Below are positions 4,356 to 59,641 of a DNA stretch of 64,000 nt, in pieces (the first letter of the stretch is position 1; every line of letters begins with the position of its first letter). The translations under genes were made by a program, and so were the position numbers. The notes below the pieces were generated by a model, which worked only from the letters and a program-made list of their open reading frames with translations, was not told the origin of the DNA and made no database searches. Source of the stretch: Eledone cirrhosa (taxonomy: Eukaryota); NCBI GenBank assembly GCA_964016885.1, contig OZ024740.1, positions 284,828,001 through 284,892,000 of the forward strand. The letters run 5' to 3'.

Positions 4356-5519
4356 CTGGAAGTATAACAAATAAATTATTATGAGAGTTTTAACTTTACT
4401 TCTACAAAATTATTATAATACACTCTTGTGAACGCAAATAAAATATCAAGAGAACATCAAATAAACTGAAAAATGAAATAATTAACGTTATAGTAAAATT
4501 TATTTAATTTTCATTGAAATTTAGTAATTACCATAAAGAGAAATGGTTTTGAGAGGCAGATAAATATTATTCACACACACACATACACACATGCATATAG
4601 CATAGCATATATAACTAAGTTCATGTAGTATTTGACAAACAATTAAGAGATGAAAAAGCCTCAATGCAGTCACCCAATTACTAGAAATAGCAGCCAAAAT
4701 CTCTCTCAAATCATAACCTATCATTTCAAAAAGGAAAGGATATATTGGATAATGTAATGTTGGATACACTATGATTATTTTAAAAATGATTTTAAAATTC
4801 TAGGCATCGATGTATAATGTTAGTGTACATGAATTATGGGAGCACAAAGGAACTGAGAGGAAAACTATGTATAAGAGGAATTAGATGAGACATGCATGTG
4901 AGTAGTTTAAGCTGGGTGGACATGTGGTGTGTATATAGGGTGACTATTGGGGTAGGAAGTGCCAAGCAATTCAAAAGGTTGAAACTTATGAAGAAGGTGA
5001 CAAAGGATGGCAACAAATGGTGAGATACTGCTAGATAAAACTCATCCAACCCATGCAAGCATGGAAAAAACACGCGCACACACACACACACAAACATATA
5101 TAGACCAGCTTGGAAAAATAAAACATAAGAATGATGTTGATTATGATGATATATATTGGTGATCTACATGATAAACGCACCCAGTACATGTTGTAAAGAG
5201 GTTGGTGATAGGAAGGGCATCCAGCCATAGGAATCTTACTAAACAAAGAGTTGGGAAGACGCTCAGTGGTGTCAAAGACATGACAACCTCTCCTATGCAC
5301 TCAGTGAAGCATTGACGTACATAAGTGAAACACAGATCCCTGGCCTGCCTGGGAAAACAGTATCTCCGCTTCAGTGCTGACATGGTCTATGTAGACCTGT
5401 CCAGCCCTTGCTAGCAGGGAAAGTAGATATTAAAATAATGATGATGATGATGAATATAACTCTCAAATGAAAATCAGCACTTTATATATTGTAGCATTAT
5501 AAAAATTTTACTTTCTTAC

Positions 5520-6774
5520 CTCCAGCTCCATTAATTAAATGTGTTGGTGCCCTTGGATTGTGGTAGTTCCAGCTACTAACCACATTATTTGCGACTGGAT
5601 AACTCCGTTCATAATGATGTACATGTCCACTCACATAAACATCAACATTTTTTTTCACTAGGAGATTTTCCAATGCAGCTCTCAGCTTTGTAGACAGAGA
5701 TTTGCAACTTATATTAGCGTTGTGTGAGCTACAGTACAAAGGTCGATGTGCAAGGGCAATAACCCAAGGTACTTTGTCTCTGTTTAGATTAGCTTTCTCC
5801 AGATCATTTTCAAGCCATTGATATTGCAGTGAACTTTGGTTTACATCATGTTCGGTGGAAAACATGCTGAAGTGAACACCCATATAATCAAAAGAATACC
5901 AAAACGGAGAGTCAGAGTCACTTTCTGCATAGGGCATCCGAAACCAGTTTAAATATGCACCAAAGTCAAATTGAACTTCATGGTTTCCTGGTAAAACCAT
6001 ATAAGGAATTCGACTTGTTATTCTTTTTATTTTATTCATATACTCTGTCCATATGTAAGAATTGTTTCCTTCTCGTTTACTGAAGTTGTCTGCATAGCTG
6101 ATATCACCAATATGTATAAGAATTTTCATTTCTAAAGAACGAGTAAAATTCCAAATTGATTCAATAGTTTCATCGCTATTTGTGACACCAAGATCACCAA
6201 CTATTCCAATTAGATTACGCTTCTTTGACTGACAACTTTTAATTTGCATTCTCTCAATGTATGCATTTTCTGACTTTGAGATTGTGCAACTAGTTTCTTC
6301 ATTTGAAACTACCATATTTGGTAATTGTAAACTGAAGCTTTGAATTGTACTCCAACCATAAGCAGGGTCACCACAGATATAGTAGACAACATCATATATA
6401 TTTTCAAAACTCTCCAATTTTAACTCAGCTTTGTTTAATGTTAACTGGAACATTCCAGCTGTGTATGTATATGATTCCCCTTGTACTCTACTGGGAGTCT
6501 TAGAATGAATATTGCTATAGAGACATGCTGGAAAAAATGTATTATTTTGAAAAGGAAGAGGAGTCAGCCATATTGCAACCATTTTGTTGTGCCCTTTTAG
6601 TGCTAAATGTAATCCTTGAACAGGTTCTGAACTTAAAATAATTGGTTCTTTTAAAGGATTAACAACTTTAGGTGACATATCAGCAAATATTCTGTTTAAT
6701 TCCTCATTATCAGAAACAAATGCAGTGTAACATAGGGAATAAAATAAGCTTACAGTGCCAAGTGAGAACAACAT
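5520..6774 (-). CDS. Purple acid phosphatase (secreted metallophosphoesterase, FN3-like N-domain plus catalytic domain), main coding exon
   Basis: Motifs GDLG, GDISY, GNHE, IALAH and GHVH supply all seven PAP metal ligands. ATG at 6774 starts a hydrophobic signal-like segment. The exon opens at 6796 after TTTCCTTTATTTTTAAG and closes at GGAG|GTAAGA (donor 5519). Confidence 0.93.
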
Positions 6775-7419
6775 TTTTCTATAACTGACTTCCAATCTTA
6801 AAAATAAAGGAAAAGCACAAAATTAGACATCTATAAATAATGGACAATATAAAAATATTAATGAATTTTTAATCTAGAAGCAATATTTTTGTTTTAGTAG
6901 TAATAATCAGTGCAGTAAAATGTTTCTTTGGTTATTGGAATTATGTGTGAACTAAATTCAATGTTTTACTCAAGAGAATAACATATATTGTAATTAAATT
7001 CCTAGTTTGTAAATTAGATGCCTATAAGTAAATCATAAAGGAAAGATAAATCTCTATAAATGCAAACATTTAGTAGCTACAACCAATCTTTGAGCAAGTG
7101 TAATGCTTGTTTATATATATTTCCCTTTACATAAAATACATCATAGAAACTAACATTTCAAGATAACGAAGTATATATGAATTTTTGAAACATTTATGGC
7201 CTTACAGAGTTTTGAAATAGTTAACAGCAAATGCTAGAACACAGTGTATATTTGAAGATTTTAAGGTAAACTTCTTGCACAAATATGGATTATTTATTTA
7301 ATTGCATTATTAAATGCATGTATGGTATGTAAATTAGACTGACCACTTCAAGTATTTTCTATATTCAGTATCATATATATAGAATTGCTCTAGTAATATT
7401 TCTCTGTACTCAGAAACAT

Positions 7420-9000: not shown

Positions 9001-10345
9001 TAATAATAATAATAATAATGAAATTATTGTGTACAGTGCTCAGGTGCACTACAACTCATCAAAGGTGCATGTATAGTACATAGAATAATGTACAAATGTC
9101 AGGAAAATGAACAGTGTATGAGTCATGATATAATAACAATAATGAAATATTGTGTACAGTGCCCAGGTGCACCACAACTCATCAAAAAAGTGCATGTACA
9201 GTACATAGGGCAATGCACAAACATCAGTAAAATGAACAGTGCACGAGTCATGATACACACATGTGTGCATGTGTATGGAAGGGGTACATCAGGTGTAGTT
9301 TTGGCGTATTTCGGGAAGCATGAGTGTCTTAAAGGATGCAGTGTCTCGGCAGCTAACAATTGACGCAGGCAGTTTGTTCCATGCTTCAGCAACTCTGAGC
9401 GTGAAAAAATGTCTGCGAAAGTCATGGGAGCTGTGCTGTTTTCTTATCTTGTAGGCATGTCCACGTGTGTTAGACACATGGAGATCAAAGAGGCGCTCAG
9501 GGTTGCAATTGGCGAGATGGTTAAAAACTTTGTGGGTATTCACCAAGTCCATTGCCAGACGTCGGAGCTTCAATGAATCCATGCCCAGGGAAGCAAGGCG
9601 TTCAGAGTATGGTAGGTGTCTGATGGAGGGTATGCGCTTGGTTGCACGTCTCTGAACAGTTTCCAGGAGGTCAATGTTCCGAGCAAGATAGGGGTTCCAG
9701 ACTGATGATGCGAATTCCAAGTGTGGTCGCACCATAGCTGTATACAGTTTTAAATAGATGGCTGGAGAGCAGCTAACAAAGGTCTTGCTGAGTGATGCCA
9801 AGACACCCTCGGCCTTCTTGACAATCTTAGAGACATGCTTTGTCCAACGCAAATCGTTGCTGATAGTAATGCCCAGGTCACGTTCACAAGAGGACTTTTT
9901 GATGTCAGTGTTGTGGAGGGAGTATGTGGACGCTGGATTTTTCCTTCCAAAATGCATGGTGGTACACTTGTCCACAGCCAGCTTCAGTTGCCAGTCTGTG
10001 ATCCATTGCTGCATTGTGTCCAGGTCTGATTGTAGGAAAGAGTTGTAAATTTCAGTATCAGTCCTTTTGATTTCAAGGTACAGCTTGATGTCATCTGCAT
10101 ATTTTAGTACCATGGCATTCTGTAAGTTGGCATCTATGTCATTAATATATGCCACAAACAAAAGAGGACCAAGAACAGATCCCTGTGGTACACCAGATGA
10201 CATCTCATATGGTGAAGAATGCTGTCCTAGAACCGTGACTACTTCCTTTCGGCTGAGAATGAAGGATTTCAGCCAGTCGAAAAGATCATCCCTCACACCC
10301 ATTGCAGAGAGTTTTGGCATAAGTCTTTTGTGTGGCACAGAATTA
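9001..10345 (-). mobile_element. CR1-type LINE, 5'-truncated, with open RT ORF (9289-10338)
   Basis: SGVPQGSVLGPLLF, YADD, ERDLG, RPHLEFASSVWNP, LETVQRRATK, NTRGH and WNKLP motifs; 3' UTR ends in (ATT)n. Confidence 0.95.
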
Positions 10346-10721
10346 AATTAAATTAAATTAATGCTAACCTTCATGATTTAGTTTTAACTATGCTATATAT
10401 GTGGGTACACCATGAGAGATCATCAAATATTGTGAGGTCAATAATTTGCAGCTGCTTGTTAATGGTTAGAGAAGGTAAGATACATAAAACACTGTTCACT
10501 TGATATGAGCACTGGCTGTGTCTTTGTGACAGTGAAAAAGACTAGAATGTCATATCTTCATTGAAGACTGTTTTTGAGGTTTTTGTTCATAGAGACTGAG
10601 GTTTAGCAGAAGGCATCTCAGTTACATTCAGTAGACACCTATGGGTAGAAAGTGAAGAAGTAAAGGGTGGTATCATCTGTCTGCAAAGGAGTGACGATTA
10701 TTAGTGATAGCAATCAGGTCA

Positions 10722-24097: not shown

Positions 24098-26050
24098 AGA
24101 TATGAAGACAGGCAAGACAGCTGGGCCTTCAGAGATAGTTGCTGAGATGTTGAAGGCATCTGGTATGATGGGACACACTATGGTTACCCGTATAGTTAAC
24201 CAAGTAATACAGAATGGGGTCATACCAAAAGACTGGCGTAGCAGCATCATCATTAACTGCTACAAGGGTAAAGGGGAAACTATAGAAGCATTAAGTTAGT
24301 TGACCAGGTCATGAAGGTCACAGAAAGAGTTATAGCGCAACTAATCAGAGAGTGAATTGATCTAGATGAAATGCAGTTTGGGTTTGTGTCAGGTAAAAGT
24401 ACCACAGATGCTCTTTTCCTTGTACGACTACTACAAGAGAAGTACCTAGCTAAAAGTAAACCCCTCTACTTAGCTTTTGTAAACCTGGAGAAAGCCTTTG
24501 ACAGAGTCCCCCCGCTCCATTATCAAAACTAGGTGTAGATGAATGGCTTGTGAGAGCTATACAAGCTATGTATAATGAAACAGTTAGTAAGGTTAGAATT
24601 AACAATGAATATTGTTAAGAATTTAGTGTAAAAGTTGGCGTTCATCAAGGCTCTGTCCTTAGCCCCCTCCTATTTATTATTGCCCTTCAGGCTATAACAG
24701 AGGAGTTCAAGACCGGCTGCCCATGGGAACTCCTATACGCAGATGATCTAACGCTCATAGCTGAATCAATGGCTGAACTAGAGAAGAAATTCCAAACATG
24801 GAAACATGGCCTAGAATAAAAAGGCCTTAAAGTTAACTTGTCTAAGACTAAAGTTCTAGTTTGTAGGAAGGAAAATAGGGCACAGGTGCTCTCAGGGAAA
24901 TGGCCATGCTCAGTGTGTAGGAAAGGAGTAGACAGAAATTCCATTTTATGTCCCAAATGCAAAGTATGAGTACATAAAAAATGTAGTGGGATCACAGGTA
25001 AACTATCTAAGAACGTAGACTTTATGTGACCAATGCTCAGGTGCAATAAGTAACAGGTGTCCACAGGACACTAGCTCCTTCTATTGCCCAGATGGTTCTA
25101 TAGAAATAGTAGACACTTGCCGTTACCTGGGTGACGAAATCAGCAGTGGTGGAGGGTGTTCTGAAAGTACGGTAGCTAGAGTCAGAACAGGATGGAAAAA
25201 GTTAAGAGAGCTTATACTGCTGTTGGCCACAAAAGGTTTCTCTCTAAAAATGAAAGGCAGATTGTATGATGCCTGTATACGAACAGCAATTCTACATGGC
25301 AGTGAGACATGGGCATTGCGTGCAGAGGACCTGCGCAGACTGGAAAGGAACGAAGCATGCATGCTCCGTTGGATGTGTAATAGTAATATACGTGAACGGC
25401 AAAGCATAAATGAACTAAGTGAGAAATTAGGAATAAGAGGGATCAGATGCTGTTTACTTGAGAGAAGACTACGTTTGTATGGTCACGTGATGCGCATGAA
25501 AGACGACAGCTGCATAAAAAAGTGCAGGGCGATCAAAATTGATGGTAACCTGGGACGATCTGATAAATTCCGACCTTACACACTTGCACCTCTCTAAGAC
25601 AATGTCACTGGACCGGGATCTTTGGGGCGGTATGCAGTAATACAAAAGACCCGCCTTGCTTATGTACAAAGCAAAACCTACAGTCAGTAGGCACCTCTTA
25701 ACCAAATATACACCCCAATCCACTACCCCTACCCTATCCTCCCACTCCCACCAACACCACCCTCTCTCTGTAAAGTTGGTACAACAACATCCAGTCCAAA
25801 TAAATGAGATAATGAGATCGAGATCGTGTAGGTGTCACGACAAATGTGGCCGTGTAGGTAACACGGTAAAAAGTTCCCAGTTCCACACTGTAAATTTGGT
25901 TGGTGTTAGGAAGGGCATCCAGTCGTAGAAAGCCTGCCAGATAGTCCTATACGAGCGAGACATGGTCACCTGACCAACCTTGCCTCAAGTGGCACAACTC
26001 CCGTCTAATCCATGCTAGCGTGGAAGATGGACGTTAAACGATGATGATGA
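24098..26050 (+). mobile_element. RTE-type LINE family 1, 5'-truncated and inactivated (RT, PHD-like finger, thumb, 3' UTR)
   Basis: MKTGKTAGPSEI, LEKAFDRVP, GVHQGSVLSPLLF, LYADDL, RYLGD, LHGSETW, RRLRLYGHV motifs with stops and frameshifts; ends in (GAT)n. Confidence 0.95.
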
Positions 26051-35389: not shown

Positions 35390-36500
35390 GGGGCATACTG
35401 TATATATGCTTCAGCTTGTGCTCGTGGGAAGCCAGGTCTTCTATATTACTGTGTATAACAAGAGATCTCAGTCCTGTGTCATCGCCTATGAGAGGTGGCT
35501 TTGGGCAAGGTCAGCTTTTATCACCTCATCCCAAGTCTTCCTGGGTCTCCCCACTTCAAGGCTTCCTTCGAATTTGAGGGCTCTGCACCTTTTTATGCAG
35601 CTGTCATCCTTTATTCGCATCACATGTCTATACCAACATAATCTCCTCTCCTGTACACAGCATTTGATTCCTCTTATGCCTAGTTTTTCTCTCAGTTCAT
35701 TTATGCTTCGCTGTTCTCGTATATTACTATTACACATCCATCAGAGCATGTAAGCTTCATTTCTTTCTAGTCTACACAATTCTTTTGCACACAACACCCA
35801 GGTCTCACTACCATGCAACATTGTCGTTCGTATGCATCATACAGTCTGCCTTTTATTTTGAGAGAAAAGCCTTTTGTAGCCAGCAGTGGTAAAAGGTCCC
35901 TGAATTTCTTCCATCCCATTCTTACTCTGGCTAATGTACTTTCTGAACACACGCCACTGCTGCTAATTCCGTCACCTAGGTAGCAGAAGCTGTCTACTGT
36001 TTCTACAGAACCCTCCCAGAGTTCGGTAGTGCTTGTTCTCTGTGGTCGTTTGCTACTTACTGTCCTGGTGCAACTGCTACATGTACAGCCCACATTCTTA
36101 GCTAAACTTCCTGAGATCAGATCCCCCCCCCCCCCCACACACACACATCTCTTGTGTACCCATAGTTTGCATATGGGGAAGAGGATGGAGTTTCTACCTA
36201 CACCTTTCCAACATACTGAACAAGGCCAGTTCCGCAAGGGGATCTGGGTTCAACTTGTACGCTAAATTCCTCGCTATGGTCATTGTTAACCTTAACTTTG
36301 CTGACTGCTCCCCTATACATGGCTTATACAGCCTTTACAAGCAACTCGTCTATTCTTAGTTTTCTAAGAGCCCACCAGATTATGGCACGAAGGCACTCTG
36401 TTGAAAGCTTTCTCCAGATCAACAAATACCAGGTAAAGCAGCTTGCGTTTAGCTAGGTTCTTTTCCTATAACTGCCTCAAAAGGAAGAGGTGGTGTTTTT
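35390..36500 (-). mobile_element. RTE family 1 LINE fragment
   Basis: ORFs 35486-35737 and 35767-36237 give WPCSVC...VHKRC, VDSFCYLGD and GRPRKTWDEVI. Confidence 0.92.
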
Positions 36501-36521
36501 CCTGGTATATATATATATATA

Positions 36522-37520
36522 TCATCATCATCATCATCATCACCGTTTTACATCCGTTCTTCCACGCTAGCATGGGTTAGACGGGTTATCCTGTTGTGGG
36601 CAGTAGCCGGTCGGCTGACCATGTCTTGCTCATACGGGAACTGATTCTAGCTTGATTTCTACAGCTGGATGCTCTTCCTAACACCAACCTCATTTACAGT
36701 GAGTGCTGGGTGCTTTTTTCCGTGTAGCCTACACGTCCACTTTACAGTATGGGCTGGGTGCTTTTTTGCCGTGGCACCTCCACAACCACTTTGCAGTGGG
36801 AGGATGTGGGGGCATATTGTCTATATGCTTCAGCTTCGGCTTGTACCCATGGGGGATCAGGTCTTCTGTATTACTGCGTGACGCCAGATGTCACAGTCGT
36901 GTGTCATCGCCTTTGAGAGATGTAATTGGGTAAGGTCGGCTGTTATCACCTCATCCCAGGTTTTCTTGGGTCTCCCCACTCTGCGGCTTCCATCAACTTT
37001 TAGTGCTCTGCACCTTTTTATGTAACTGTCATCCTTCATACGCATTACATGTCCATACCAACGCAATCTCCTCTCCTGCACACAGCATTTGATTCCTCTT
37101 ATGCTCAGTCTCTCTCTCAATTTGTTTATGCTTTGCCGTTCGCGTATATTACTATTACACATCCATCGGAGCATGCAGGTTTCGTTTCTTTCTAATCTAC
37201 GCAAGTCTTCTATAGACAGCGCCCAGGTCTCACTACCATGTAACATTGCTGTTCGTATACACGCATCATACAGTCTGCCCTTTTGCAGCAGCAGTGGCAG
37301 TAGTTCCCTGAACTTCTTCCATCCCGTTCTTACCCTAGTTATTGTACTTTCTGAACACCCACCTCCGCTGCTAATTCGGTCACCTAGGTAGCAGAAGCTG
37401 TCTACTGTTTCTACAGAGCCCATCCAGAGTTTGGTGGTATTGTTTCCTGTGGGTGTTTGCTGCTACATGTGAAACCTACATTCTTAGTTAAGCTTCCTGA
37501 GATCCCACTACATCTCTTGT
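36522..37520 (-). mobile_element. RTE family 1 LINE 3' part with tail
   Basis: ORF 36857-37423 (VDSFCYLGD...RRLRWYGHV...GRPKKTW), 3' UTR and (ATC)n tail. Confidence 0.93.
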
Positions 37521-42196: not shown

Positions 42197-43234
42197 TTAT
42201 ATCACTTGACATACTTCGAGCCGATGTTTATGTAAGTAGCGCTTTTGAGCAAAAGCTCGTCCACATTTTTCACAAAGAAAATTCTTGCTTTTAACAGTGT
42301 GAATTAACATATGTGAGCGCAAATTAGATTTGTCTGCAAAAGCTCGATTACATCCATTATGTGTGCATTGAAATGGCCTCTCACCTGTATGTGTACGCAT
42401 GTGACCTTTTAAAAGCCAGGAACGAGTAAAAATCTTTCCACAAATACCGCACTTGTTTTTTTGGTCTGAATGAGACCGGGCATGAGCAGCAAGAGCTGAA
42501 AAGTTATTGAATGAGCGCTTGCATTTTAGACAATTGTGGCAGGATACATTAGTGTTCAATTCAAATGAATTATAAGGATATATTAATTCATTCACAGAAA
42601 ATCGAGAGTAATCTGTTGAAACTTTTTGATCTGAATCTGAATTTTGCTTCCCTCCTTTAGATGAATGACTAATCAAAAATGAGTGATTAGTAGAAACATA
42701 TCTGTCACAGAGTAACATATTGAAAGGCTCATAAGTATAATGTTCCCTTAATTTCATTCCTCCAGCTTTAGAATTATCTTCTAAACAAAATGTATTCTCT
42801 CCAAGAGGCATATTATTTAGATATCGAGTTGTAATGGGCAAAGACTCAGCAAAATAATTTGTAGTCCTGGACATGTTTGATAAATTACTGAAGTTTTTAT
42901 TAATTTTATACGGGATCTCAGAGCAGTGAAACTTTAATTTTCGATTAGCAGTTGAAATCTTCTTGTTTAAAACATAATTGTAATTTTGTTTGCAAATCAT
43001 GTTTTCCAAAGGTAAAACAGATGTATAGAAATCCGGAACATTGCTATTGATATGAAAACGTGTCACAAAGGACATATTACTCAAAGAAGTCTTTACTAAA
43101 GTATGGTTGCTGGATGTTGAAGTCTGTTCTTGGTATGAAGAATCATGGCAATTTAAAGTATTCTGACAATATGCCAACTGATTGGAGTGATGACCTTGCC
43201 TTTTAGTTATTACACGCCCTGATCTGGTAACCAT
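42197..43234 (-). CDS. Snail/Scratch-superfamily C2H2 zinc-finger transcription factor (4 fingers, the last C2HC)
   Basis: CGKIFTRSWLLKGHMRTHTGERPF..C.RAFADKSNLRSHM and terminal CEKCGRAFAQKRYLHKHRLEVC match the Snail/Scratch finger array. The exon opens at 43251 after TATTTTTCAG. First in-exon ATG is 43234; upstream coding exons cannot be excluded. Confidence 0.88.
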   Translation of the reverse strand: MVTRSGRVITKRQGHHSNQLAYCQNTLNCHDSSYQEQTSTSSNHTLVKTSLSNMSFVTRFHINSNVPDFYTSVLPLENMICKQNYNYVLNKKISTANRKLKFHCSEIPYKINKNFSNLSNMSRTTNYFAESLPITTRYLNNMPLGENTFCLEDNSKAGGMKLREHYTYEPFNMLLCDRYVSTNHSFLISHSSKGGKQNSDSDQKVSTDYSRFSVNELIYPYNSFELNTNVSCHNCLKCKRSFNNFSALAAHARSHSDQKNKCGICGKIFTRSWLLKGHMRTHTGERPFQCTHNGCNRAFADKSNLRSHMLIHTVKSKNFLCEKCGRAFAQKRYLHKHRLEVCQVI

Positions 43235-45169
43235 CACACTGGGATCAAAAGCTGAAAAATATAAATAGAAATTCAATTATTAGAAAACTATAACTATAAT
43301 GTGTGTATGTATCTGTGATTACATATCATGATTGTTTATGTTACATAACTTAGTGGGTCAACAAACAGAATAATAAAATGGGCTCAGCATGATCAACTAG
43401 AATCTCTTAAAGGCAGTGCTGCAGCATGGATGTAGTATAATGACTGAAATCAGTAAAAGAATATAACTAAAACTAAATGCAATTATTCCTGACAAGAAAT
43501 AGAATAACAATTTTTAACAAACTTAAAAAGCAAAATACTCCTGATAAAACCCTCCAGATAACAAGCCAAGTGGATTGGTTTGTGAGTTCATAGTTTTCTG
43601 CTGATATTTTTTTTTATTTTTTTAGGCAGGCATATTATTCTATGTGCTCACTTAGCTGTTTTTTCAGAATCTTTGAAATTGATAGAACAGGGTGGACATG
43701 GCTTGAATGTTTATAACAGTGATAATGCCACTAAAATCATCCAAGAACTTAGAACACAGAGAGCACTCCACTCCTAAATAAGCATAATCAAGATACTAGA
43801 TATTCAGATTCAGGTCAGCCATGAGTGGGTTGCCTTGTTGTCTTAAACTTGTTTATGAGTTTGTACCACAAAATAAATAAAAGCAATACTAGAAATTTCA
43901 CATTGCCTTGCTGATGCTCACAAGTAATAACAGAAAGTGGACGGTAATAAAAAAAATAATAATAAAGATATAGAGGATTCTGAGAAAATTCAAATATTTT
44001 GTTCTTCTTATCCAGCATGAAGAAATTTTCTTTCAATATTTAAAAAAGTGCATTTAAATTTCTAACACGCAGCAAATGGGGATCTCTTAATTTTTCTATT
44101 TCTATTTCTTGAGAATATTTTCAGAACCAAAATTAAAATTTGAAATTTATTGAGATTTACAACACTGGAATATTTATTTCCAAATTACATAAGCAATATG
44201 AGTATACCAAAAATGTTAACAATAACGACAGCAAATTTATTCAGTAACAACACCAATTGAATTTGAATCATATTGTTTAAACATCAAAAGCTAAAATATA
44301 TATAAATGCTACTGTTAGCAGTCTGAGTTAATTGAAAGTGAGGAAATAATGGAACAATACGAAATTAATTAACAATGAAACCTATTTCTATACAATGCTT
44401 TTTGTTGTGTTTAAATCTAATTACATACACTAAACCTTAATTAATTAAGCAACTCGAATTGGCAGCAAAGAATTCCTCCAAAATTAACACAAACCAATGA
44501 GATAATTAAACAAAAATACAATTCTGTAAGTTTTATGCCTTTTATTATTATGATTTCATTTTTGAAAGTCAAACATTCATTCACCAATTCGAATTCGACA
44601 AATTTAAAAAATAAATCCAATATTTTGAAGACCAAAGCAGCCATCTTGCAAAATATAACCATACCAATGGTCGTGTACAATGTGTGTGTGAGTATATATA
44701 TATATATAAATGAATGTTTGACAATCTCTCTGTACACCACAGATGCTACAGCAGAAACAAAGAATATCAAACAATCTTTGTTTTGCTAACAAATATATAA
44801 AAGCAGCCAGCTTACTATTCCTAAAATACAGATTTTAAAAGGACTGTACTTTATGAGAAATATATTTCAAACATTTCACTACATAAAAAGTTTCCTTTGG
44901 CTTTTCTGAGGTTTGAAAGAGGAAATACACACACAAGTATATATAGACCAAGCCAATATACAGTTCTATAAGAGCAAGATGCTGGTCACCTGACCTGACT
45001 TGTCTCAGAACATGACAACCTGTTTAACCCATGCAAGCATGAAAAAATAGATGTTAGATGGTGATGATGATTATATGATGGCAACATGAATGGACCTGTT
45101 ATTTTTCTCTAAAAATATTTTTTTCAAATTCCACCCCACCCGTCGCTTCAATCTTTCTATTTTCTCATT

Positions 45170-56000: not shown

Positions 56001-56966
56001 AATGTTGGCCATTAACTTTGCTTTTCTTCCTTCCATGGTTGATAAAATAAAGTACCAGCCAATTACTGGGATAGATATAATCGACTATACCCTTTTATAC
56101 TATGCTTATGTAGGAAATTGCTATTATTCACTATATACATTGAAAACTTTTCCTTGTTTATATATATATATATGCACACACACGGGCACGTGCATATGTA
56201 TGTGTATCTGTGTGTGTGTGCGTACACATATATATATATACAGAGAGAAAAAGATTAATGGTTGAGGAGCTTTATTACTCTTGATTTTCCCCTGCGTGTT
56301 ACAGATTTCAGACATGTATGTATGCTATGTGTGTTTTATCACAAAACAACTCTGCGACTAAAGAGAACATAAAGTACTCAATACAAAATGTCGTGTTATA
56401 TTTATTAGTAACTGAGAACTTCACAAATAAATTAATGAATACATAGATGGCAGGTAATATGTAATATTCGAGCAATGGGGGTCAAGGTTGAACACAAATG
56501 AATAAAATGCATACATTGTTGTGCTTTTAAATAAATACTTCACGAACACAGACGTGCATTATGTAGCTCTGTTAACTTTTGTCTGATGTATGCATAATCA
56601 CATATTTTAATATAACGTAAATGTATTTATGTTTGATTAATACATTTATTTTTTTAATTCAACTATATTACATAGCAATGATTGAATTCTACGTAATTAC
56701 GTAATGTGCATAAATCCTGCATATATAATATGGTGCGCATACATATGTATATCTATATATATATAGAGAGCGAGAGAGACCACTAATCATGGGAGTACTC
56801 AATGCATGGGGAGATGCAGAGTGGGTGTTTATAAATATATATATATGTGTGTTAAGTATTTCCGTGGTAAAGGAAAGAAGAGTGCTCTATGTAACGTAGA
56901 GAACTATTTAATTACATAATAAACAACACTATAATTATTCCATTACCAAAGGTTTCAGTAGTTAAC

Positions 56967-57040
56967 TATTTCATCTGATGAACGAGCTGGACGTTTCTGT
57001 AAGGATCGTCTAGTCTCCTGAAACCTCTGGTAATGGAATA
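56967..57040 (+). ncRNA. Type I hammerhead ribozyme
   Basis: TATTTCAT-CTGATGA-[GAGCTGGACG/CGTCTAGTCTC stem II]-GAAA-CC(TCT)GG-TA-ATGGAATA; predicted cleavage after A57032. Confidence 0.85.
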
Positions 57041-57071
57041 ATTATATTGTGTGTATATATATATATATATA

Positions 57072-57225
57072 TCTAGGGCGGGTAAAATTCCCGAGATCCA
57101 TGGACGAGTTCTCTCCAGCGGTCTCTGTCCCTCATTATCGCTGCCATGTCCTGCGTCTCCAACAGACCAGTGTCTGTCCTTAGGGCATCAACATACGTTA
57201 ACCTTGGTCTTCCTCTTCCAGTTGA
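57072..57225 (-). mobile_element. 3' end of a third RTE-type LINE family
   Basis: Minus strand GRGRPRLTYVDALRTDTGLLETQDMAAIMRDRDRWRELVHGSREFYPP*, running directly into (TA)n. Confidence 0.8.
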
Positions 57226-57617
57226 AAAGGGAGTAAGGTTCTATATAAAACAGGTTATAGAAAAAAGTAAGAATAGAAACAGCACAGAAATATATTTAAA
57301 GAATCTGTTTTTCAGATATTTCTTTGATTCGTCAAAGTGCCATTATTGAAAAAAGGAGAAGAACAATTAAAAAAAAAAGGAGTTTTATAAAGTATATAAA
57401 ATATACTTTATTAAGGCTAAATAGTTTTCGCCTGCTTATTACAGGGTCAGACGAGAACTGTTCTCGTTTGATGACTCTGTGATGTGATAAGCAGGCGAAA
57501 CTCCAGAGTAACACATCTCACTGTTTAGCCTTAATAAAATGAATATGTAAACTCTACTTTGGTATTGAGTACTCTCTTCTCTCTACCGTCAACCACACAA
57601 ATATATATACACACACA

Positions 57618-58103
57618 TTTAAACTATAATAAAGTAAGGAGTGCGGGACTGCGTCCAGAATATATTTGTTTATCCCGTTTGTAAAATAAGTTGGATTACT
57701 TTGAATAAATAATAAATGAATATTACATAATTTATCTACTAAATTTCTTTATTCTTGATTAAATATAAATAATTGCGTTACTTATTTTAAGATTCACTTC
57801 TATAAAATTTTCAAATGTCAACACTTCCGGTTAGCGATCGCTTAAATAAACATTCATATATTTCCGTCACTAATTTTCTCCTAATGCAGTTTTTATATAT
57901 CGCCTTTTTTTTTATGTATCATGGATTACGTTACTGATTACAGAAGACAGTATAACACAGTCTTCGTTCAATTTCTGTGTATATTGTCAATTACGATTTT
58001 ATTTGATATATCATATCTACATGCATATCTACTTGCGTATAATATCAATATACACACTACACATGCTCGCAGAAAACCACCCGAAGGGTGGTTTTTCTGC
58101 TAG
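57618..58103 (+). mobile_element. Probable non-autonomous Helitron
   Basis: 3' hairpin CCACCC-GAA-GGGTGG lies 8 nt before CTAG|T. The 5' end A|TTTAAACTATAATAAAG resembles the TCTATACTAATAAA-type terminus. No TSD. Confidence 0.6.
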
Positions 58104-58619
58104 TATATATAAAATGTAGCTTTCCATCTATGAATACATCTCCTTTCCCATTCGGGGTTGCTTTTATGAGATCATTGGTTATAATTAATACCTCTGAAGA
58201 TATACTGCAGTCACTGATACTTAGCTATATTCAATATATATTTTTTCCATTTATTTAAATGTGTATTCTATTGTTCTGGCAATAGTAGAATTTGACTGTT
58301 GTATTGAAACAGTTGTAAGGTCATGGGTTTTTTTTTAATCTACCATTTGAATTGGTTTATATATGTGTGCGTGTGTGTGTCATCATCATCATCATCGTTT
58401 AACGTCCATCTTCCACGCTAGCATGGGTTAGACGGTTTTGTTCCATTTGATGCGGGAATGGTCGGGAAATGTCTTGCTTGCACGGAAGCGTCTCTGGCAG
58501 GTTTTTTTTACAGCTGGATGCCCTTCCTAACACCAACCACATTTACAATGTGAACTGGGAGCCTTTTCACCGTGTCTCCTACACGGCCACCTTACAATGT
58601 GGACTGTTGTATGTGTGTG

Positions 58620-58714
<95 letters not shown>

Positions 58715-58936
58715 TCATCATCATTTTACGTTTGCTTTTCCCTGCTTGCATTAATATAGGCATTTTATATATAGTTATATTTAAAAGCAGTCAATCATTG
58801 GCCGAAGAAGCACTTAATAACATATGATTTATTTTTCAAAGGAAAAGGTGGCCGTGGTTTCGAAGTTTCAGTTTTAATAAGGTTCATTACAGCTGAAGCT
58901 TGGAAGTCATTGCCACTTTTCGTTTGAAAAATAATA

Positions 58937-58988
<52 letters not shown>

Positions 58989-58989
58989 T

Positions 58990-59072
<83 letters not shown>

Positions 59073-59073
59073 T

Positions 59074-59105
<32 letters not shown>

Positions 59106-59271
59106 ATATATATAATATATATATATATATAATATATATAATATATAATATATATAAAATATATATATATATAAAGTATTTCCGTAGGAAGGGTAAAGGA
59201 AAGGAGAGTGCTCTATGTAAGCTACAGAGCTATTTAGTTATGTAATAAACAACATAAGACAATTAAATAAA

Positions 59272-59346
59272 ATTTCATTCTGATGAGCGTTTTCAGACGT
59301 CTATGTCGAGCTCGTCTGTCTTCGTGAAACCTTTGGTAAATGGAAT
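59272..59346 (+). ncRNA. Type I hammerhead ribozyme (same family as 56967-57040)
   Basis: ATTTCATT-CTGATGA-GCG..CAGACG/CGTCTG..CGT-GAAA-CC(TTT)GG-TA-AATGGAAT; predicted cleavage after A59338. Confidence 0.85.
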
Positions 59347-59366
59347 AATTGTCTTACGTTGTTTAT

Positions 59367-59404
<38 letters not shown>

Positions 59405-59440
59405 TTATATAGAGTTAGAAATTCACAGTAAATCCCCTAG

Positions 59441-59641
59441 GATCAAGGGAGTTCAAGAAAGAGAGACCGAGCTCTTTATAAATCATATCAATGAGAGAAG
59501 GCTCAATAAATTGTCAGATAATAGGGGATAAAGTAGTTTTTGTGTTTTACCAGGGTAGAACTTTATCCCCTATTATCTAACAATTTATTATGTGCCTTCT
59601 GTCATTGCTATGATATATATAGTCCTGAGTTACCCTTGATT
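59441..59641. repeat. Long imperfect inverted repeat
   Basis: AATAAATTGTCAGATAATAGGGGATAAAGT pairs with ACTTTATCCCCTATTATCTAACAATTTATT; arms extend outward to ATCAAGGG / CCCTTGAT. Confidence 0.85.

Follow-up and report, generated by a model that had tools for sequence, protein, structure and literature searches.

Head-to-head fragments of a hammerhead-bearing terminal repeat, probably from Hydra-clade Penelope-like elements, in (TA)n tracts of the Eledone cirrhosa genome

The window analysed here, a 64,000-nt stretch of the Eledone cirrhosa genome (GCA_964016885.1, contig OZ024740.1, positions 284,828,001 to 284,892,000 of the forward strand), holds two short fold-back repeats whose arms match a terminal repeat (pLTR) of Penelope-like elements (PLEs) and whose parts are numbered below from a predicted ribozyme cut site. 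Copy 1 is composed of an inverted arm on the reverse strand (56850-56958), a subfamily A pLTR piece running from about -15/-18 to about +103 that includes a ~60-nt 3′ tail and lacks CUGAUGA, and a sense arm on the forward strand (56963-57052), which covers about -70 to +20 of the same subfamily, is 91% identical to locus L189 and has its short end inside (TA)n; the (TA)n tract at this 3′ end (57053-57073) is the likely insertion target. Copy 2 is built from subfamily B pLTR pieces: its inverted arm (59174-59265, reverse strand) extends from about +7 to about +103, tail included, and falls short of the catalytic core (L031), while its sense arm (59265-59368, forward strand) spans about -74 to +30, again with the short end inside (TA)n, and is 94% identical to L034 and 90% identical to the 3′ pLTR of a full-length element at L164. 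A long (TA)n tract lies upstream of copy 2 (58941-59173) and a second one downstream (59370-59411); (TA)n also dominated an inverted-repeat scan.

Contrary to the sequence-only reading, the two are not copies of one type, with 78-87% identity across subfamily references versus 86-94% to the reference of their own subfamily. An arrangement in which they form the ends of a single 2.3-kb element was rejected, because they belong to different subfamilies, have two arms each and are separated by unrelated repeats.

The sense arm of each copy carries a complete type I hammerhead motif, as had been proposed from the letters, with the core CUGANGA, GAAA and UH, stems I-III and an open end at stem I, and with cuts predicted by computation from the sequence after 57032 and 59338. 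In copy 1 (56967-57040, forward strand), CUGAUGA occupies 56975-56981 and GAAA 57020-57023, next to a GUA site; stem I pairs 56967-56974 with 57033-57040, and stem III comprises one A-U and two C-G pairs with a 3-nt loop. The copy 2 motif (59272-59346, forward strand) has CUGAUGA at 59280-59286, GAAA at 59326-59329 and a stem I formed by 59272-59279 and 59339-59346. All 12 core bases are present in both, and the common head, the stem II pairings and the A-U and G-U closing pairs match their earlier description, with a mean column identity of 82%. The non-canonical stem II closing pair, raised earlier as a caveat, is no defect, since in the published hammerheads of the Hydra clade this pair is often A-U, G-U or a mismatch (PMC8557442, supplement table). 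Copy 1 folds far more stably than its shuffles (z = -9.0, 0 of 200 as good) and copy 2 more modestly so (z = -2.4, 2 of 200), and the minimum-energy fold of the copy 1 sense arm by itself has the hammerhead shape. The search with hammerhead covariance models that had been suggested as a check gave no match: Rfam returned no family at the gathering score over the whole 64-kb window, and at E≤10 its 15 matches across 56800-59450 included no hammerhead model, so the assignment rests on motif, conservation and covariation. Among the sub-threshold Rfam matches at E≤10 was one to mir-3003 on copy 1.

Both subfamilies are abundant in the 3.0-Gb assembly (1796 contigs). Exact 27-mers diagnostic of the copy 1 and copy 2 types gave 508 and 819 genome matches, respectively, and none for either reversed control, and DNA searches produced 1788 and 1377 first-look candidates, 40 of which were scored in each. 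Reading 60 loci revealed that the shared head of the window copies is the reverse complement of a ~60-nt extension that lies downstream of the hammerhead in other copies, and that two complete hammerheads stand back to back at some loci (L035/L036 and L039/L053). Some subfamily B copies (L073, L082) are preceded by an extra hammerhead, which was assigned to another family because in L092 a continuation of its own is present on the opposite arm. The genome offers more than a thousand short insertions for study, and at least five subfamilies with rewritten stem II.

The extension connects the repeats to coding elements. At L091 it leads into a 5′ UTR and then a broken open reading frame (ORF); the sequence of the copy 1 inverted arm likewise runs on into 5′ UTR and ORF at L165 (the same locus as L104), where a copy-1 type hammerhead (96.5% identity over 86 nt) precedes a decayed ORF, the one locus at which a complete hammerhead of this type was seen in that position. 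By eye, about 23 of 30 loci that match the 5′ UTR and ORF start have the family tail or hammerhead directly upstream, 10 of them with a full core, and the remaining seven end within or at the start of the 5′ UTR/ORF query. At L164, copy-2 type repeats flank a decayed ORF, with cut sites 4816 nt apart. L160 contains a 1126-nt direct repeat (96.7% identity) with a sister-subfamily hammerhead in each unit, cut sites 4440 nt apart, an intact 710-aa frame between the repeats and an inverted copy upstream. Both L160 and L164 thus have the partial tandem arrangement that characterizes pLTRs, with a hammerhead in each repeat. Open frames of 714 aa hold 15 of the 150 scored protein matches. We saw no intact ORF of subfamilies A or B themselves; the intact frames belong to the sister subfamily, ORF DNA identity between subfamilies being 73-78%.

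The protein encoded by these frames (P0001, ~710 aa) contains DKT at 114-116, YRDD at 346-349, a CxCX5C linker at 555-563 and an endonuclease core VVY..YVG with no cysteines between. Motifs and homologues together indicate a single ORF with a reverse transcriptase (RT) followed by a C-terminal GIY-YIG domain, adjoining the repeat, as in EN+ PLEs. Of 8000 homologues scored, 1328 pass E≤1e-20, nearly all of them without a name, and among the matches listed one has PF01541; Pfam searches of P0001 and of the decayed pieces returned no RT or GIY-YIG family, and a PDB sequence search with P0001 returned nothing. In the definition of Craig et al., Hydra-clade elements are marked by DKT, CxCX5C and the loss of CCHH, by hammerheads and by (TA)n targets (PMC8557442; bioRxiv 10.1101/2021.04.23.441226). 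P0001 and L091 both carry DKT where other elements have DKG, at this position the decayed subfamily A copy, L165, has DKA, and the CxCX5C linker without CCHH is common to P0001, L161 and L091. By eye, P0001 is also co-linear with Hydra-1_Obim of Octopus bimaculoides (PMC8557442), with 24 of the first 44 residues identical. On the basis of motifs, this by-eye comparison and the one PF01541 homologue, the domain and clade assignments are likely.

The resemblance to published Hydra elements extends to the order of RT and GIY-YIG in one ORF, (TA)n targets, a hammerhead near the 3′ end with an often non-G-C stem II closing pair, and inverted 5′-truncated copies with a tail on one end. Hydra-1_Obim has another hammerhead sequence and only ~55% identity to P0001 over those 44 residues, so the Eledone cirrhosa elements form a different family, most likely a new one within the Hydra clade. 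They are also longer, with 4.4-4.8 kb between cut sites and a ~2-kb microsatellite-rich 3′ UTR, where Hydra elements are generally below 3 kb, a tendency rather than a diagnostic motif (PMC8557442), and they differ in their ~60-nt tail, long interrupted stem II and non-palindromic 3-bp stem III. An annotation of Octopus vulgaris repeats lists Penelope-like families and, in the part available, makes no mention of a hammerhead.

Taken together, we consider it very probable that both window copies are 5′-truncated pieces of the hammerhead-bearing terminal repeat of PLEs, likely of the Hydra clade, placed head to head inside (TA)n, that their fold-back form is likely a by-product of insertion and that the copies are likely dead. 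The sequence-only reading of a mobile family with a conserved, covarying type I hammerhead tied to PLEs is borne out; its description of the family as non-coding is not, since coding PLEs have this repeat unit as their pLTR, continuous with their 5′ UTR and ORF.

How general the fold-back form is was determined by mapping arms at the first 100 of 584 listed places of a downstream 27-mer, on contigs C1 and C2 only, which gave 91 insertions once second arms were merged and one duplicate locus was dropped. A second arm had to be at least 24 nt long and reach a 3′ end, references were trimmed of flanking microsatellite, and boundaries are BLAST ends with a precision of ~5 nt; a first-pass count of 72 two-armed insertions in 92 included spurious matches to flanking microsatellite and was replaced. 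By these rules, which impose the head-to-head orientation, 52 of the 91 insertions are two-armed and 39 lack the inverted arm. Arms end 3′ in two groups, at about +34 to +49 and at about +95 to +101 (where the reference stops), and 50 of the 52 two-armed insertions combine one tail end with one short end (p = 6e-13 versus 50:50). The same combination occurs in 13 of 16 two-armed insertions of subfamily B, from 28 picked by BLAST. Junctions are distinct in 51 of the 52, and for 13 of the 52 there is another insertion with both arm starts within 2 nt, so slight re-copying of fold-back units is possible. Downstream of 85 of the 91 insertions there is a TA, CA or TG tract, against a background of 10.6%, in keeping with the (TA)n insertion of Hydra elements.

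Inverted 5′-truncated copies and a tail at one end are known traits of PLEs, and both recur here, with a tail of ~60 nt versus the published 30-40. Frangieh et al. report a PLE protein that cleaves the two strands of its target and extends them, with reverse transcription beginning at two internal sites that define the tail (PMC11167929). By analogy, the element protein would nick both strands of AT-rich DNA, each nick would prime reverse transcription from one of two internal RNA start sites, at about +40 and about +101, and both cDNAs would stop early and have their truncated ends joined, each arm being one such cDNA. The element of that study, Poseidon PAc of Anolis carolinensis, is alike in its two fixed 3′ ends that define the tail, its pLTR hammerhead, its AT-rich targets and its apparently uncleaved templates. 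PAc belongs to another clade, and its start codon falls within the hammerhead and its RT start sites within the ORF, whereas here the ATG stands 227 nt past the cut (L160) and both 3′ ends fall in the 5′ UTR.

The 5′ ends of the arms carry a further signal. Among 91 arm starts, 14 lie at -5 to +8, 22 at -57 to -6 (0.42 per nt), 38 at -82 to -58 (1.52 per nt) and 17 further upstream, the pile-up sitting just 5′ of hammerhead stem I. One-armed insertions also start there, 12 of 39 of them from -81 to -60, and in subfamily B the start lies at -85 to -73 in 15 of 28 arms, from a sample skewed toward arms that extend so far. In the literature covered, mostly open-access and with Repbase and Dfam outside its scope, we found no description of the pile-up or of this family. 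Only 4 of 92 arms start within 3 nt of the cut, where stem I complementarity gives microhomology. The templates would mostly have been uncleaved RNA, because most of the cDNAs represented by the arms read through the cut site. The pile-up may reflect a transcription start, RT stalling past a structure, microhomology to (TA)n or divergence from the references; in Penelope, transcription is reported to start in its own pLTR. We raise as a tentative possibility that the thousands of tiny head-to-head copies are a record of PLE insertion in which both strands prime on uncleaved RNA, at +40 and +101 of the 5′ pLTR, and the cDNAs run off the RNA 5′ end upstream of stem I, the pile-up at -82 to -58 then being the transcription start. 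If true, a single step would account for both the inverted structure and the tail on one side, and the conserved ribozyme would not define the template.

The same pile-up, together with the very large number of short copies and the better conservation of the core than of its surroundings among them, could instead be produced by a non-autonomous element of ~200 nt, SINE-like or retrozyme-like, that is transcribed, cleaves itself and is re-inserted as a unit by PLE proteins. Animal non-LTR retrozymes are similarly short and non-coding, have type I hammerheads and derive from pLTRs (bioRxiv 10.64898/2026.07.22.740005; see also PMC7229834). Active retrozymes are, however, defined by head-to-tail tandem units with complete hammerheads, and the copies here are head to head or single with variable ends, any same-strand neighbour being present at just 4 of 91 insertions. 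A unit that spreads as such is further at odds with the nearly always different junctions, with the scarcity of arms beginning at the cut, where a cleaved unit would start, with the continuity between repeat and coding elements, and with the retention of all 12 core bases in just 26 of 53 complete arms; both window copies keep all 12. We therefore regard such a unit as unlikely and retain the reading of the copies as truncated pieces of PLE terminal repeats.

Losses of core bases are expected because copies decay. Across the 53 arms that span the motif, whose core had no part in the search pattern, departures from the column majority affect 39 of 636 core cells (6.1%), compared with 13.2% for the tail and, CpG set aside, 16.6% for stem II, and the difference between core and tail persists at A/T and G/C positions separately (base-matched p = 9e-4 and 2e-5). 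The free position N7 is variant in 28% of arms. Within subfamily A, stem I pairing is kept in 39 of 56 changed cells; stem I was counted there and excluded from the cross-subfamily pair count (A2), where MAFFT misregistered it. When 104 motifs were clustered, the stem II variants were unlike in sequence and still folded as hairpins. In 10 subfamily representatives, 8 of 13 stem II pairs are altered on both sides, which 4 of 500 shuffles equal, and no shuffle of 500 reaches the stem II covariation score; since the representatives are related, these fractions are not probabilities. Slid controls drop to 24-43% paired. Eleven of the 12 core columns do not vary among the 10, and the twelfth, the cut-site A, is shifted by an alignment gap. 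A core no better kept than its flanks and without covariation had been named beforehand as the outcome that would count against the ribozyme; the data came out the other way, and sequence comparison indicates that selection acts on the putative ribozyme in the master elements.

It nonetheless probably cleaves weakly, or only with a protein or a second copy helping. Metazoan PLE hammerheads are reported to cleave poorly alone (PMC4209133), and one PLE hammerhead to need its protein (PMC11167929). That the motif only resembles a hammerhead, by chance or through decay, and never cleaves, even in master elements, could be argued from the missing Rfam match, from a hammerhead fold that is minor at equilibrium in its natural pLTR context, lying 5.7-9.5 kcal/mol above the ensemble by secondary-structure energies that take no account of tertiary contacts or Mg, and from ribozyme mutants of another PLE that left in vitro insertion unaffected (PMC11167929), yet core columns that stay invariant across 10 representatives while stem II is rewritten with compensation, next to a free N7 that does vary, make this highly improbable. 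The minimal metazoan PLE hammerheads of Cervera and de la Pena (2014, PMC4209133) offer a close parallel, being type I motifs in pLTRs with a long stem II, thousands of them solitary and some 100-700 bp apart on opposite strands, which those authors read as truncated PLEs. They differ in their conserved G10.1-C11.1 pair and palindromic helix III, where stem III here has 3 bp and a triloop and the closing pair is A-U, G-U, U-A or mismatched.

As a ribozyme finding the locus is ordinary, since hammerheads have been published from PLE terminal repeats, as have inverted truncated copies and tails on one side. Its value is as material for open questions, namely the origin of PLE inverted insertions and the role of their hammerheads (PMC8557442, PMC11167929), for which the family provides a near-perfect one-tail, one-short rule, a 5′-end hot spot at the ribozyme foot and a rewritten stem II. 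The intact 710-aa frames of the sister subfamily could be expressed.

The sequence-only reading had further described an upstream arm that pairs across the catalytic core and might act as a conformational switch. The pairing holds in copy 1, where a long hairpin crosses GAAA, stem III and stem I and covers the cut site, and fails in copy 2, whose arm starts at about +7, clear of the core. In secondary-structure energies, without tertiary contacts or Mg, forming the hammerhead costs copy 1 30.8 kcal/mol as a whole versus 0.9 for the sense arm alone, and copy 2 3.3 kcal/mol with the arm versus 4.7 without. Of the two-armed insertions, 28 have a complete hammerhead: in 19 of these the inverted arm extends to GAAA or past it, in two it gets no further than the cut site or stem I, and in seven it falls short, a spread from which we conclude that burial of the core is common but accidental. 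The arm is an inverted 5′-truncated second copy whose length varies with each insertion, and the pLTR unit itself lacks it, as seen at the L164 3′ end and at L165. An evolved switch turning the ribozyme on and off, for which the real alternative hairpin of copy 1 and the 19 buried cores might speak, is thus largely refuted and merits next to no credence, given an arm that is missing in 39 of 91 insertions, starts over a span of more than 150 nt and lies outside the pLTR unit, an energy gap in copy 1 that amounts to a lock, and a copy 2 arm that does not lower the hammerhead fold. Fold-backs of this kind can be mistaken for riboswitch-like RNAs, MITEs or microRNA hairpins.

Between the two hammerhead-bearing pLTR pieces of a Penelope-like element (copy 1, of subfamily A, and copy 2, of subfamily B) lies a third hammerhead fold-back family, unrelated to both, which occupies positions 57404–57600 and in which a short inverted arm is combined with a sense arm bearing a tail. 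Its hammerhead has a stem III of ACUC/GAGU and a predicted cut after position 57510; the copy in the window carries a C3-to-U change and a damaged stem I. A first look across the genome returned 1494 candidates for this family, and the hammerhead motif could be parsed in 12 of 15 loci.

Additionally, a fourth hammerhead-like motif is found on the minus strand (37788–37717), with a palindromic stem III and a 5-bp stem I; a (TA)n tract begins approximately 170 nt after it, and similar motifs are carried by two loci taken from the same genome (L089 and L146). The flanks of the fetched loci (for example, L092:8144–8191, L060, L073 and L011) incidentally contain many further families of hammerheads whose stem III loops are palindromic, and all fetched loci together yielded 118 distinct hammerhead motif strings. 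In L073, L076 and L082, one of these families adjoins copies of subfamily B, probably because both share (TA)n targets.

On the far side of its own (TA)n tract, copy 1 borders on an apparent LINE 3′ end, and the same LINE-like neighbour recurs at locus L190. This LINE fragment (57076–57235) is one of four LINE reverse transcriptase fragments in the window, the others lying at 9289–10347, 25019–25597 and 35767–37462. Just upstream of copy 1, deep coverage and loose ends mark positions 56770–56830 as the end of another high-copy repeat. A perfect, GC-richer short hairpin followed by a TA tract (58066–58101), whose sequence recurs beside locus L302 and, partially, beside L068, is possibly the terminus of another mobile element.

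Two open frames lie on the minus strand: one of 441 amino acids (5497–6822), which by its motifs resembles a purple acid phosphatase/metallophosphoesterase, and one of 359 amino acids (42197–43276), ending in four C2H2 zinc fingers that resemble those of Snail/Scratch-type factors.
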